Of a stretch of 64,000 bases of DNA, positions 50,490 to 56,254 are shown in pieces (position 1 is the first letter of the stretch; every line of letters begins with the position of its first letter). Origin of the DNA: Methanocellaceae archaeon UBA148 (GTDB taxonomy: Archaea; Halobacteriota; UBA148); NCBI GenBank assembly GCA_002495885.1, contig DAHG01000025.1, positions 84,353 through 148,352 of the forward strand. The letters are read 5' to 3'. A program made the translations under genes and the position numbers. The notes below the pieces were generated by a model. The model worked only from the letters and a program-made list of their open reading frames with translations, had not been told where the DNA came from and searched no databases.

Positions 50490-50687
50490 CCCTATTCAAT
50501 GTAATGCGCCTATTTAAGTATTCCCACATGATGGTGGGAAGAAGTGTGGATATGGAAAATTTGGCGACTAAGAGAGTGCAAGTTGTTTTTATAATTCACG
50601 GAGATACTTCATAAACAGTCCAATTTTTCCCTTCTCGTGAATGGAGAATAGGAATGAGACAATTTTTTATGAAAACACCTTACTTTA

Positions 50688-52967
50688 TCATATGATTGCC
50701 TCATCTATCCCTCTCCCTTTTGGAAAGATTACACCAATCTTATCATCATATTCAACATTTGCTATTACTAAGTCGTCTCGGAAGTCAAAAACATTCACAG
50801 AGTTTTTAAACAAAGGAACCCTTACAGAATATCGAACACGTTTAATTTTCTTATCTAATTTTTTAATTTCTTCTTCAAACGGTTTGGGAATTGCGTCAAT
50901 AGTAAAATACTTTGAAGTCCGCGTAGTAAGTCTTTGCATGGCTTTTTCTTTGGCAGAGAGCGTATATACGTAAGATAGGTTATCTTGCACATAGTCTATC
51001 AACTCTCTAACATTTCCTAGCTCTTTTCCAAAATCGGTATCCGCATATACCTCATTTACAACCTGGAGCAGTTCTTTCTCAGTAGGCTCATCTCCTTTGT
51101 TTTGGAGTGAATTATAACTATTTTCTATTGTATCTTTTGGATATACGAAGTAAGAACTTTGGGTGGGCTTGTAAATATAAACTTTCGCCCTCTCTTTTTG
51201 CCCTCTTCGATTCACCCTCCCCAAACGCTGAACAAGTGCATCTATAGGGCACATTTCTGTACACAATAAATCAAAATCGATATCAAGACTTACCTCAACT
51301 ACTTGAGTTGTTACTGCAACAAACCCCCCCATAGGCAAGTTTTCTAGTTGATTCTCTCTCATCATTCGATGATAAAGAATAAATTGAGAGTGGAAAAGCA
51401 TAAGATCAAATAAGGGGATCCTTTCTTGGAGAGAATTATACACTTCTTTAGCAGTTCTTATCGTATTACAGATCACTAATACCTTTTTACCCTCTCTGTA
51501 GTTTTTTATGATATCATCTTTTGCATTATATATTTCTTCTTTATTTCTCCACTCAATTCCCACACGACATAAATCATCAAAAGAACTATCATGGGGGATC
51601 TCCCCTAAACTTAATTCATCTTTTAGAAACTTTTTAAGTCCCTCAGGAAATGTGGCACTCATGAATAAAGGTATTGCACCTAAAGATTGTAAAAACCTCG
51701 TCATCTCCACAATAAGAGCAACTGTATACGGTTCGTAACAATGGATCTCATCAAAAATCAAAACAGAATTGGTAGCATTTGAAAGCCTTGAATCCCATCT
51801 CCCCCAATTAAAAAGAGTGAAAAGCAATTGATCCACCGTAAGTATCGTAGATTTATGAACAAAAGCTCTACTAAAAAGAGAATTCCATATAAATTCCCAT
51901 GAGTCTTGATAATCTATCTCTGAGAATAAAAGGTAATCTGAGGTCCCATGAACTATGCCGATGTCGTCACCAAGAACGAGGGGGTGTTTAAGTCTTTCAT
52001 ACATCTTATTAGTGGTGGTCATCGTAGGCATCAAATAAAGCAGTTTTTTCCCCACCCCATTGCCCATTGCCCAAAGGAGAGACGCTTCTGTTTTGCCTTT
52101 ACCAGTTGGTGCTTGTAATATCGCTCCTCCCCTATAGTTTCTGCAATCTTTTTGGAATTTGTACCAATCAAATGTTTCTTTTCCAATTCTCTCAAGAATG
52201 GCCATTTTTAGATTCTCTTCTTTTATAGAAGGAGAATACTGAAATGAGAAGATACGTTCGGAGGCATACCAATCGCAGTAATGCAGAATATTTTTTAGAT
52301 TGGCAAAAAGGACTCGGATTTTTTTAGCCTCTTGTTTTCCTAATGCACGAATAAAATCATCTGCAAGTGCATAAGTATTAAATATCTCTGCATAAGTTTT
52401 TGGGTAAATAAAAGACTTCTTTAGAGGTTTTTCAAAGTATTCTTCGAATTTTGGCTGAATAATTTCCTTAGATATTTTCTCAATAACCTCTAAGATAGCC
52501 TGAGGCGATTCATTATTGTTCTCATAATTCTGAAACTTCCCTTTTCTAAATGGTGAATGGTGGTTAGCTACTATTAAGCCTTCTATTGGAATAGATTTTG
52601 TTATCCCACTCCGTACCCCTTCTACCCATATATAATCTGAACAAAATTGCTTAGTGAACCAGAAAGATAAAAAAGCATGACTTACCTTTTTGCTTTTCTT
52701 CAGAATGTAATTCTGAAAAGGTATTGAAGCTTTTCCAATATCATGCAGAGCAACACAAAAAAATGCACTTTTCCAAAATTGTTCTTCTGAGAGCAAATAT
52801 TTATTGCAGATGTTTTTTATACTATCTTTTTTAAATTCTCTTATAGTCTTAAATAGTCTAAGTGAATCCTCAATATGTTGGAATAAAGGAATGTTCGGAT
52901 CTTTCTTAGCTAGAACTTTTTCATAAGAATACCACATTTCTGCCATCTTCTGGGTCATAATAAGCAT
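50688..52967 (-). CDS. cas3: CRISPR-associated Cas3 (fused HD nuclease and DEAD/DEAH helicase)
   Basis: 759 aa. N-terminal HD (ALHDIGK), Walker A (APTGKGKTEA), DExH (LIFDEIHCYEP). The start overlaps cas5, so the exact start is uncertain. Confidence 0.85.
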   Translation of the reverse strand: MLIMTQKMAEMWYSYEKVLAKKDPNIPLFQHIEDSLRLFKTIREFKKDSIKNICNKYLLSEEQFWKSAFFCVALHDIGKASIPFQNYILKKSKKVSHAFLSFWFTKQFCSDYIWVEGVRSGITKSIPIEGLIVANHHSPFRKGKFQNYENNNESPQAILEVIEKISKEIIQPKFEEYFEKPLKKSFIYPKTYAEIFNTYALADDFIRALGKQEAKKIRVLFANLKNILHYCDWYASERIFSFQYSPSIKEENLKMAILERIGKETFDWYKFQKDCRNYRGGAILQAPTGKGKTEASLLWAMGNGVGKKLLYLMPTMTTTNKMYERLKHPLVLGDDIGIVHGTSDYLLFSEIDYQDSWEFIWNSLFSRAFVHKSTILTVDQLLFTLFNWGRWDSRLSNATNSVLIFDEIHCYEPYTVALIVEMTRFLQSLGAIPLFMSATFPEGLKKFLKDELSLGEIPHDSSFDDLCRVGIEWRNKEEIYNAKDDIIKNYREGKKVLVICNTIRTAKEVYNSLQERIPLFDLMLFHSQFILYHRMMRENQLENLPMGGFVAVTTQVVEVSLDIDFDLLCTEMCPIDALVQRLGRVNRRGQKERAKVYIYKPTQSSYFVYPKDTIENSYNSLQNKGDEPTEKELLQVVNEVYADTDFGKELGNVRELIDYVQDNLSYVYTLSAKEKAMQRLTTRTSKYFTIDAIPKPFEEEIKKLDKKIKRVRYSVRVPLFKNSVNVFDFRDDLVIANVEYDDKIGVIFPKGRGIDEAII

Positions 52968-53655
52968 CTTTTATTGGTTCTTCTATTATAATTTTATACC
53001 CTGTAAGAAAGGTAAATTCCTCCACATCTTTTGGCTCTCGCGTTTTATCGATGATTTCAAATCTATGAGGCAATTTTTGAGTTAAATGGGGTTTTAAAGT
53101 TCCTTCTAAAACCGTTTTACTATCGACTTTAGCAATGTTAAATGGGAGTAAAATACCATAGAGCATTATAGGCGATTTAGGATCCGTGAGTGATACTATG
53201 TTTACAGATTTTACCCTAACCAATTCATCATCCCTACCTAAAGAAAGAGGAAATATAGGTGTCTCGACCTTATTTTTTATGTAATTGAGTAGGCTATTAC
53301 TTTCTGCTCGAACGTATATAAAGTATCTAGCGCGAAATAATTGTTCTCGAACAATAGGCGTAGATACTATTCTTTTATGTGCTGGAACATTTTTTATTGT
53401 AGTCCAAGTCTCTTTGATTCGTCCTTCTATATCATCTATAAGAACTGCTACATTGATTCTGTTGAAAAGAGGTTCGGAGTTATCCACCCATTGCCAGCGA
53501 TGATATATCTCTTCCTCTTTCAGTCCCAAAGCAGACCCGATAAATCCAAATAAAGTCGTCTTTGGCGGGAGTTCATAAGTGCGATGATATCGTTGGTCTT
53601 TTTGCCATTTAAATGACGTGAAGGCACTAATCGTCTTAATTTTTATAGCATCCAT
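52921..53655 (-). CDS. cas5: CRISPR-associated Cas5 (type I-B like)
   Basis: 244 aa. Gly-rich LFGFIGSALG segment of a RAMP. Confidence 0.75.
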   Translation of the reverse strand: MDAIKIKTISAFTSFKWQKDQRYHRTYELPPKTTLFGFIGSALGLKEEEIYHRWQWVDNSEPLFNRINVAVLIDDIEGRIKETWTTIKNVPAHKRIVSTPIVREQLFRARYFIYVRAESNSLLNYIKNKVETPIFPLSLGRDDELVRVKSVNIVSLTDPKSPIMLYGILLPFNIAKVDSKTVLEGTLKPHLTQKLPHRFEIIDKTREPKDVEEFTFLTGYKIIIEEPIKDAYYDPEDGRNVVFL

Positions 53656-54996: not shown

Positions 54997-55009
54997 ACTT
55001 TACCACCTT

Positions 55010-56254
55010 TTAAGTATACCTTGTAATATTATAAAATTTTATAAAGTTAGCAAAATCTCTTACCTTCTCTCTTTTTTTGTATACAATTCTCTCTGCAATA
55101 TCATTGATGGAAGCATTTTTAATAATTCGCTCTGAGAATCTCTCGCGATATAGGTTGTTATAATCGTTACCTTCTTTTATTACAAGATTAGAAAACACTA
55201 GAGGAAAATTTATTCTTTCTTTTTCCATGCTTTCATATAGTTTAAACAGACGGGACATCTCATCAAATACGAGATTATTCTTGAAAGATACACTTTTACC
55301 AGAAATAGCACCTAAGGAAAAGTGCCAGATTTTTGTCGAGGCAACATTTAATCTCCGAGCTGTACCTACTGTCCCCTTCAAGGATTTGTATAACTCATAA
55401 CTAAAAGCCAAAATCGTCTCATTTAGATATTGATACCTATACCCATCATCAAAGATGTTAGATGGTTCACTGAGCAGCTTTCCACCTATTATGTCTTTTG
55501 TGTCCATCCAGAACTCTTTTATCTCATTCAAAGATGATGCATGAGGTATTGCCATAAAAAAGGTCTTTTTTCTCCTGTTAATATTGTAAAAAACCCTGAT
55601 AACAGCAAATAACGAGGCTATTTCGCATAAAGTACACATCTTTAATTCTAAAGACAAATTGGAATAGAAGTTGCTCCAGTTTTTGACTGGAACGAGAAAA
55701 GGATAATTATTAGAGTGAACTTTTGAAGAAGCATTAGTAGAGCCACAAAATGCACAGATTTCTTGTGGCATTAAATTTGGTTTGAATGGCCAGTTATATT
55801 GCGGAGTAGAACAATAAACGCGCCCTTTATCATCAATTTTAAAATTGACTCCTTTTTGCTCCTTTTTCATATTCTCCCACATATGGTATTTCTTATCTGG
55901 AAAATCGCATTTTTCGTACTTGGGTCTCAAATCACCACCACTGAAAAGTGAGCCTACAATGCTTACCAAATTAATTTTACCGACAAATTCAAAGTCTCCT
56001 TTTCCTTTATTATAAATACAAACTTTTTTTTCAGTTGGCTGGATGTATCTTTCATTCTTAATTCTTTCAAATGTTTCTTTCAGAAAGTTTTCTATTTTAT
56101 CATAAGTTGATGCAGAGAGAACATAATTATCTTTATCAAATCCAATCCCTAACTTTTTACGAACTTCTTCTTTATCCTCGATATAATCGCAGAAACTTAT
56201 AATTCCTGCATCAATCCAAGGATCTCCTGTGTAACTAAATTTGACTTCCATCAT
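55010..56254 (-). CDS. cas8: CRISPR-associated Cas8 large subunit (Cas8b/Cas8a1-like, short form)
   Basis: 414 aa. Central zinc-finger-like CAFCGST...CTLC. It sits in the large-subunit position upstream of cas7 and cas5. Confidence 0.55.
   Translation of the reverse strand: MMEVKFSYTGDPWIDAGIISFCDYIEDKEEVRKKLGIGFDKDNYVLSASTYDKIENFLKETFERIKNERYIQPTEKKVCIYNKGKGDFEFVGKINLVSIVGSLFSGGDLRPKYEKCDFPDKKYHMWENMKKEQKGVNFKIDDKGRVYCSTPQYNWPFKPNLMPQEICAFCGSTNASSKVHSNNYPFLVPVKNWSNFYSNLSLELKMCTLCEIASLFAVIRVFYNINRRKKTFFMAIPHASSLNEIKEFWMDTKDIIGGKLLSEPSNIFDDGYRYQYLNETILAFSYELYKSLKGTVGTARRLNVASTKIWHFSLGAISGKSVSFKNNLVFDEMSRLFKLYESMEKERINFPLVFSNLVIKEGNDYNNLYRERFSERIIKNASINDIAERIVYKKREKVRDFANFIKFYNITRYT

Follow-up and report, generated by a model that had tools for sequence, protein, structure and literature searches.

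In archaeal CRISPR-Cas systems (CRISPR, short palindromic repeats that are clustered and regularly interspaced), the trees of adaptation and interference genes disagree and interference cassettes change partners (Garrett, Vestergaard and Shah 2011; Shah and Garrett 2011; reviewed in PMC4390879), and the vapBC pairs found between or within cas cassettes have been proposed to help maintain them (PMC4390879). In Escherichia coli, the whole cas-E gene set at a fixed locus was described as replaced by a substantially different variant within one species (Almendros et al. 2014, PMC3903273). More generally, adaptation and effector modules are considered to evolve semi-independently, and effector exchange has been suggested as a way of escaping anti-CRISPR proteins (Koonin and Makarova 2019, PMC6452270). 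The locus described here lies in a 64,000-nt stretch of contig DAHG01000025.1 from Methanocellaceae archaeon UBA148 (assembly GCA_002495885.1, positions 84,353 to 148,352 of the forward strand), hereafter referred to as the window, and is a type I-B CRISPR-Cas locus with an AT-rich block (50490-56254) containing the interference genes from cas8 to cas3. The comparison with related loci indicates that this block is very probably an exchangeable type I-B cassette sitting in a slot of a conserved chassis, with cassette and chassis having separate histories.

The interference set of the window is designated cassette A, its relative in the sequence L106 cassette A', a second I-B variant cassette B, a third I-B-like set cassette C and a type I-D set cassette D. 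All the genes of the locus are on the minus strand and are transcribed in the order cas6, mntA, hepT, a solo HEPN gene, an open reading frame (ORF) of 59 aa, cas8, orf114, cas7, cas5, cas3, vapB, vapC, fic, cas4, cas1, cas2, the array, carA and carB. The same chromosomal site, recognizable by its carAB context, is represented in the Methanocellales sequences L102 and L103 (GCA_028687135.1), where cas6-mntA-hepT is followed by cas8b (567 aa), cas7 (382 aa), cas5 and cas3 of cassette B and then by vapB-vapC-fic-cas4-cas1-cas2-array-carA-carB. The flanking proteins of the two loci are close orthologs, as opposed to Cas7 and Cas3 (Table 1). The synonymous divergence (dS) between the window and L102 is 0.17-0.40 in the flanks, 0.31 in carA and 0.24 in carB, and since the chassis is as diverged as carAB, it has been inherited with the chromosome. 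CarA of the window groups with proteins that bear the label Methanocellales archaeon. At the DNA level, homology to L102 reaches position 56848 on the left and resumes at 50574, with no homology detected by BLASTN between window 50575-56847 and L102 1694-7690, and the breakpoints thus lie no more than 95 nt after the hepT stop codon and no more than 85 nt upstream of vapB. A Methanocellaceae metagenome-assembled genome (MAG), L009, shows the same pattern of matching flanks and a non-matching cassette, although mntA-hepT is missing there. Cas6 is 91-92.5% identical to that of the window in L009 and L102, and VapB and VapC are 86-90% identical in these two and 81-83% identical in L096.

Orthologous flanks around a non-orthologous cassette at a syntenic site point, at the sequence level, to cassette replacement. 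The initial annotation had proposed separate histories for the interference and adaptation modules, and this is supported by direct comparison of loci and not by composition alone. Its further proposal, that the interference set had been acquired or replaced by transfer, holds as far as replacement is concerned, as seen at the syntenic sites of L102 and L009, and gain in the lineage of the window is probable.

Table 1. Features of the CRISPR-Cas locus in the window, the matches on which the gene identities are based, and the identity of the encoded proteins to their counterparts in L102
Feature	Position	Strand	Match or remark	Protein identity to L102
cas6 (chassis)	58012-58755	-	TIGR01877 150 bits	92.5%
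mntA	57372-57824	-	PF18765 66 bits	89%
hepT	56941-57363	-	PF01934 99 bits	93%
Left seam	56848-56941	-	common to L102 (90%), L097 (type I-D, 81%), L105 and L106	
Solo HEPN-domain gene	56427-56798	-	PF05168 86 bits; GC 0.427 (intermediate)	
59-aa ORF	56275-56454	-	called as a gene by the Joint Genome Institute (JGI)	
Junction motif GGTCGTAGATG	56252-56262	-	overlaps the first ATG (56254-56252) of the cas8 ATGATG start	
cas8, short large subunit (414 aa) containing CxxC...CxxC	55010-56254	-	predicted fold	
orf114, Cas11-like small subunit, 114 aa	54652-54996	-	predicted fold	
cas7 (Cst2/DevR family)	53672-54655	-	TIGR02585 184.9 bits (cut-off 72.75)	24%
cas5 (Cas5t-like)	52921-53655	-	PF09704 36 bits (cut-off 23); TIGR02593 22.3 bits (cut-off 17.8)	
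cas3 (HD nuclease and helicase), last cassette gene	50688-52967	-	TIGR01587 267 bits (cut-off 102); TIGR01596 75 bits (cut-off 43); PF22590; PF18019	28%
Right seam, vapBC upstream region	50490-50574	-	homology resumes at 50574 (L009, L102) or 50553 (L096-L098)	
vapB	50247-50489	-	precomputed Pfam match MazE_antitoxin	86%
vapC	49849-50286	-	precomputed Pfam match PIN	86%
fic	48790-49710	-	PF02661	89%
cas4	48272-48793	-	TIGR00372	92%
cas1 (type I-B)	47286-48275	-	TIGR03641 475 bits	95%
cas2	47021-47284	-	TIGR01573	93%
CRISPR array, 41 repeats of GTTAAAATCAGACCATAGTGGGATTGAAAT	44186-46883	-		
carA		-		88.5%
carB		-		94.9%

The gene identities were established by Pfam and NCBIfam profile matches, except for cas8 and orf114, which have no match in either collection and were assigned by their predicted folds. 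The block is a complete, self-contained type I-B interference set consisting of a short Cas8, a separate Cas11-like protein, Cas7/Cst2, Cas5 and Cas3. The AlphaFold2 model of Cas8 (predicted local distance difference test, pLDDT, 87.5) has as its best Foldseek match the large subunit of a type I-B Cascade, 8fcj_I (E 3.4e-5, probability 1.0), with 8h67_L, 7tr6_C and 8ip0_J next in rank, so that the product is predicted to have the fold of the I-B Cas8 large subunit. For orf114, only one of the five models was confident (pLDDT 85), and its six best Foldseek matches are small chains of type I-A Cascade (9cro, 9crp, 9crq; probability 0.99-1.0, TM score 0.57-0.62, E 0.06-0.14); in the relatives the gene is always located between cas8 and cas7. 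The start of cas7 used by gene callers is 54646, giving a 324-aa protein (P0001, 100% identical) compared to the 327-aa form of Table 1, and Cas5 scores 59 bits against TIGR01895, which is under the cut-off of 96.7.

In canonical type I-B systems, Cas11 is made from within cas8b. Because the small subunit of cassette A is encoded separately and not inside cas8b, the cassette is a variant of type I-B. It resembles the Tneap/Cst-like type I-B module in its Cst2/DevR Cas7, apparently Cas5t-like Cas5, fused HD-helicase Cas3 and predicted I-B Cas8 fold, as well as in the 30-nt repeat ending in ATTGAAAT, and differs from it in the short large subunit (414 aa) and in having a separate gene for the small subunit, which by its predicted fold comes nearest to type I-A Cas11. 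Every relative with a Cas7 at least 53% identical (L016-L031) shares the layout with a short Cas8 and a separate Cas11-like protein. On the adaptation side, the start of cas4 overlaps fic by 4 nt (48790-48793), and fic appears to be co-transcribed with the adaptation genes; in the Met12-type chassis described below fic is missing and an ORF of 60-82 aa occupies its position.

Both breakpoints are adjoined by predicted toxin-antitoxin (TA) domain pairs, MntA/HepT (PF18765 and PF01934) and VapB/VapC (MazE_antitoxin and PIN), in agreement with the earlier placement of TA modules at the seams. According to the alignment, the right seam is common to every chassis variant and contains a palindrome, TTCCCACCATCATGTGGGAA (50521-50540), and a TTAAATA box (50511-50517), making it a putative vapBC promoter and operator. 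The left seam consists of a 33-nt duplicate of the 3' end of cas6 (56908-56940; the original is at 58020-58052) and then a stub of 24 codons similar to the 5' end of cas8, i.e. the Cas8 N-terminus (56833-56907). The sequence ATTGAA found there was considered as a remnant of a CRISPR repeat and rejected as too short, the seam being a copy of the cas6 end with a cas8-like stub. In L105, the stub appears to be fused to the cas8 gene of the cassette.

A motif of the form GGTCGTAGA(T/G)G, the same as that at the junction with cas8 in the window, stands before the cassette B cas8 of both L102 and L009 and is found again at 56915, within the left seam. The L009 copy is simply the 3' end of cas6, which continues straight into cas8, and the slot therefore extends from the old cas6/cas8 junction to the putative vapBC promoter. 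It was at this old junction that the TA pairs were inserted: mntA-hepT, which is 89-93% identical in L102, absent from L009 and part of the conserved chassis, joined in the window by the HEPN gene and a remnant of a nucleotidyltransferase (MNT). The solo HEPN gene lies within the variable segment yet outside cassette A and is absent from L102, L009, L105-L107 and L008, while the 59-aa ORF is apparently, by eye, the C-terminal remnant of an MNT antitoxin. Together (56275-56798) the two may be a decayed HEPN-MNT pair, found only in the version of the locus present in the window. The Met12-type chassis possesses on its left a 123-aa ORF with a weakly HEPN-like 110-aa ORF, and on its right a gene for a winged helix-turn-helix MNT protein with a HEPN gene, in addition to vapBC.

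As the seams are conserved between strains with different cassettes and the source is a metagenome-derived contig, two populations might have been joined at a seam during metagenome assembly. Such a chimera is extremely improbable: a JGI draft sequence of the same population (L004) spans both junctions, an ENA contig from another sample (L001), 99.1% identical over 51797-46721, spans the right junction with cas3 of cassette A followed by vapB and the genes up to cas2, and Logan contigs match at 100%. The window also has matches in a 161-kb metagenome contig from JGI and in several further assemblies.

The chassis is organized as cas6 (with or without mntA-hepT), left seam, slot, putative vapBC promoter, vapB, vapC, fic, cas4, cas1, cas2, leader and array. 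The chassis would fix the repeat, crRNA (CRISPR RNA) processing and spacer uptake, and the cassette would only have to accept a crRNA with the 8-nt handle ATTGAAAT. Exchange most likely takes place by homologous recombination in the conserved seams, one of them being the junction of the cas6 3' end and the cas8 5' end downstream of hepT and the other the vapBC promoter region. The TA pairs beside the seams would provide conserved homology arms and, acting as addiction modules, would probably help to retain the chassis as well. A classical integrase-mediated genomic island was considered as well and rejected, there being no integrase or transposase, tRNA target or direct repeats around the cassette.

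The repeats of these I-B loci, including those of the arrays beside relatives of cassette A, all end in ATTGAAA(T/G/C), so a new cassette would meet a familiar crRNA handle, and judging from this ending cassette A is probably functionally compatible with the crRNA of the chassis. In the JGI assembly of the same population, the array (L004 17764-20657) has 43 spacers compared to 40 in the window, one of the extra spacers being leader-adjacent and two internal; the leader-proximal addition means that the array is still acquiring spacers. No spacers are shared between the window and L102, L009, L014, L096 or L098, and the arrays consequently give no information on descent.

Cassette A is found elsewhere in other surroundings. 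In L008, it is present at 76% nucleotide identity beside a cas6 whose product is only 24% identical to that of the window, and in L105, L106, L107 and L016 at 81% nucleotide identity from the cas8 start (56247) to 50687. In L105-L107, which have the Met12-type chassis, homology stops at 50687, one base beyond the cas3 stop codon. L096, which comes from a complete genome labelled Methanosarcinales archaeon Met12, carries cassette C, and L097 carries a type I-D cassette (Csc2 72 bits, Csc1) next to a Cas1 that is 91% identical to that of the window. The left flank of cassette A' in L106 is 99% identical to that of L097 and the right flank is 98-100% identical to those of L096 and L097, and hence three cassettes alternate in one nearly identical chassis (the cassettes occupy 1009-7228 in L096, 142-6283 in L097 and 166-5790 in L106, compared to 50688-56254 in the window). 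Cassette B is mobile as well: its dS between L102 and L010 is 0.36-0.45, compared to saturation in cas4, cas1 and cas2 and an identity of 53% in Cas6.

The chassis has had a history of transfer too. CarB of Met12 is only 59-60% identical to that of Methanocellales whereas Cas1 is 89-91% identical, which means that the chassis itself moved between archaeal orders. The chassis genes (47021-50489 and 56941-58755), which have the highest GC content at third codon positions (GC3) in the window and a Cas1 about 90% identical to that of another order, likewise look horizontally transferred. Furthermore, the cassettes are mosaic inside. Between the window and L106, the dS of cassette A is 0.36-0.54 for cas8, orf114 and cas7 and 1.1-1.2 for cas5 and cas3, and between L102 and L009, cas8b and cas7b of cassette B are more diverged than cas5b and cas3b. 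In both comparisons the two halves of the cassette differ about two- to three-fold in dS, which suggests recombination inside cassettes between cas7 and cas5.

The initial annotation had singled out the block by eye as more AT-rich than its surroundings, and this was confirmed. The GC content of the block is 0.357, compared to 0.425 over the whole window and 0.461 and 0.453 in the flanks (47021-50489 and 56255-58755). Among all 5,765-nt windows in the 64 kb the minimum, 0.356, is at 50493-56257, within 3 nt of the block as originally delimited, and the windows of this size outside the block have a mean of 0.4285 (standard deviation 0.019) and a minimum of 0.386. The sliding-window profile is not flat across 47-59 kb and drops sharply over the block, with both edges resolved to approximately 100 nt: in 200-nt windows, GC passes from 0.455 (50400-50599) to 0.355 (50500-50699) at the right edge and from 0.365 (56100-56299) to 0.455 (56200-56399) at the left edge. 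By gene, overall GC is 0.326 in cas8, 0.352 in cas3 and 0.408 in cas7, the least AT-rich gene of the block. Several other short isolated genes of the window are also low in GC (0.34-0.37), namely those at 31873-33654, 18141-18866, 9153-9767 and 15131-15460, of which one, lying between a helicase and PolB, encodes a U32 peptidase, two are ORFs without a family match and one encodes a GNAT acetyltransferase, and none of them forms a block this long. There is also a low-GC gap (0.343) with few ORFs at 6019-7030 between the thermosome gene and ilvD, containing a 42-aa ORF that resembles the end of an integrase/transposase core, and a 59-nt unit is in perfect tandem duplication at 11868-11985.

The contrast is mainly synonymous. 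GC3 is 0.305 in cas3, 0.278 in cas5, 0.381 in cas7, 0.348 in orf114 and 0.304 in cas8, compared to 0.609 in cas1, 0.592 in cas4, 0.557 in cas2 and 0.492 in fic on the adaptation side and 0.555 in vapC, 0.704 in vapB, 0.560 in hepT, 0.603 in mntA and 0.548 in cas6, while GC1 of the block is only about 0.05 lower than that of the flanks and GC2 is nearly the same. The cassette genes rank near the bottom of the 55 long ORFs of the window (median GC3 0.44) and lie below 41 other ORFs (Mann-Whitney p = 8e-4). A/T-ending codons account for 59-79% of the two-fold and Ile codons of the cassette, compared to 41-61% for the flanks and 45-67% for the housekeeping genes, whose codon usage is thus intermediate. 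Amino-acid composition was rejected as the main cause of the AT-richness, the effect being mostly at third codon positions; of the four residues said to be overrepresented, Lys, Asn and Phe are enriched, only modestly, and Ile is not. The flanks had also been described as balanced like housekeeping genes, which is true of their overall GC and not of their GC3, the flanking CRISPR and TA genes having the highest values in the window (0.55-0.70 versus 0.42-0.52 in housekeeping genes, p = 1e-6).

The difference in composition is attributed to the separate evolutionary histories of cassette and chassis. A number of observations weigh against the reading of the block as an exchanged cassette and should be considered together. 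All the cassettes, including those at the same slot elsewhere, have a lower GC content than their own chassis (A 0.357, A' 0.365, the L008 copy 0.367, C 0.355, D 0.353 and B 0.42), and effector GC3 is below adaptation GC3 in 33 of 40 I-B loci, which are not mutually independent (median difference -0.10). There is no mobility signature, with no integrase, transposase or tRNA at the seams (47-59 kb) and the tRNA genes at 17-18 kb, and the only sequence duplicated in the flanks, that of the cas6 3' end, lies on either side of mntA-hepT and not of the cassette. Nor was a vehicle found: the viral contigs scanned with the Cas7 alignment contain no relatives of cassette A, and a TBLASTN search of plasmids with Cas7 gave nothing above 36% identity. 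With regard to the data, most of the relatives are metagenome contigs or MAGs with unreliable taxonomic labels such as 'WS2 bacterium', and the flanks in L105-L107 are short. Finally, with regard to direction, the window, L102 and L009 form a star with a dS of about 0.2-0.3 for every pair, and the closest sampled cassette, A', differs from that of the window by a dS of 0.36-1.2, more than the chassis of the window differs from that of L102, which implies that no recent donor has been sampled.

Given that replacement cassettes are also AT-rich and that the offset is seen in 33 of 40 loci, composition alone is no proof of recent transfer, and part of the contrast must be generic with some other cause. 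Taken to its end, this argument needs no transfer at all: AT-richness would be generic to effector genes, through weak codon selection with AT-biased mutation or through low expression. The 33 loci do include L021-L030, where cassette and adaptation genes appear to belong together, and unrelated cassettes converge on a GC content of about 0.355. A generic bias, however, does not account for a protein identity of 24-28% at a syntenic site whose flanks are 86-95% identical, or for DNA homology ending abruptly there, and the effector-adaptation GC3 difference in the window (-0.277) is the largest of the 40 loci. On its own this explanation is considered improbable, while a generic bias may contribute. 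Returning to cassette exchange, copies of cassette A keep the same GC content across dS values from 0.4 to more than 1.5, and no drift toward host composition is seen; composition marks the cassette's own history and does not date the transfer. Possible causes of the AT-richness are a shared pool of low-GC cassettes or weak codon selection with AT-biased mutation. Three unrelated slot cassettes (two I-B-like and one type I-D) have a GC content of 0.353-0.367, with cas7 the highest and cas3 the lowest within each. A similar compositional split was observed in L018 (5407-11566), where a reversed cas2 with high GC3 (0.61) and AT-rich genes resembling a type III effector set lie beside a relative of cassette A; L018 was rejected as a low-GC home host of cassette A, as its low-GC flank consists of type III effector genes and is uninformative on host composition.

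As for direction, the lineage of the window probably gained cassette A in place of cassette B. The window and L102 share the mntA-hepT insertion with the duplicated cas6 end while L009 is undisturbed, which groups the window with a carrier of B and favours replacement of B by A. The reverse course, which is rather unlikely, would make A the old resident of the chassis, its AT-richness old and stably kept, with L102, L009, L096 and L097 having replaced theirs. Consistent with it, cassette A has diverged between the window and the Met12-type loci (81% nucleotide identity; dS 0.36-1.2) about as far as the chassis themselves have (77-83%; dS 0.43-1.4), as co-divergence predicts, and cassette B, being closer between L102 and L010 (dS about 0.4) than their saturated chassis are, is itself a mover. 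Against it, the plain arrangement is seen in L009, whose cas6 leads straight into cas8 of cassette B, and the derived mntA-hepT insertion with the duplicated cas6 3' end shared by the window and L102 makes B ancestral for the three; moreover, between L102 and L009 the divergence of the cassette B genes cas5 and cas3 keeps pace with that of the chassis (dS 0.19-0.25), and the extra HEPN gene and MNT remnant are present beside cassette A in the window alone.

A broader and more tentative reading, possible yet doubtful, is that the TA-bracketed slot is maintained as a 'plug-and-play' site, where a single chassis of Cas6, repeat and adaptation genes would work with four or more cassettes from a circulating pool (three I-B variants and type I-D), all with a GC content of about 35.5%. 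The TA pairs and their promoters would act as recombination arms and addiction anchors, and swaps of parts of cassettes (cas8-cas11-cas7 apart from cas5-cas3) would add variety, possibly against anti-CRISPR proteins.

Whichever cassette came first, the locus makes visible at one syntenic site, with located breakpoints, a kind of module exchange mostly inferred from discordant trees, and it combines one adaptation/Cas6/array chassis with four interference cassettes spanning type I-B and type I-D. It is thus a natural system for asking whether crRNAs can be shared between different Cascade types, whether effectors are swapped as a way of evading anti-CRISPR proteins and whether TA pairs provide anchors for recombination. 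Some caution is called for as well, since low effector GC is widespread in I-B loci and by itself argues only weakly for recent transfer.

The exchange of CRISPR modules has been described before, and the locus is a new, well-resolved example of it and not a new kind. With the exchangeable archaeal modules (PMC4390879) it shares interference cassettes that change partners and vapBC pairs beside the cassettes. Those modules were described for type I-A and type III systems of Sulfolobales, mainly from tree incongruence, whereas here a single syntenic slot is followed through Methanocellales and Met12-type sequences, the breakpoints are located at the nucleotide level and the slot holds three I-B variants as well as type I-D. 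The E. coli cas-E case (PMC3903273) is likewise a replacement at a fixed locus by a different cas variant, but both of its variants belong to type I-E and insertion elements are involved, whereas the slot described here has no insertion sequence elements, is bracketed by TA pairs and leaves the adaptation genes in place. Compared to the general principle set out by Koonin and Makarova (2019, PMC6452270), the locus of the window is one concrete case at the population level.

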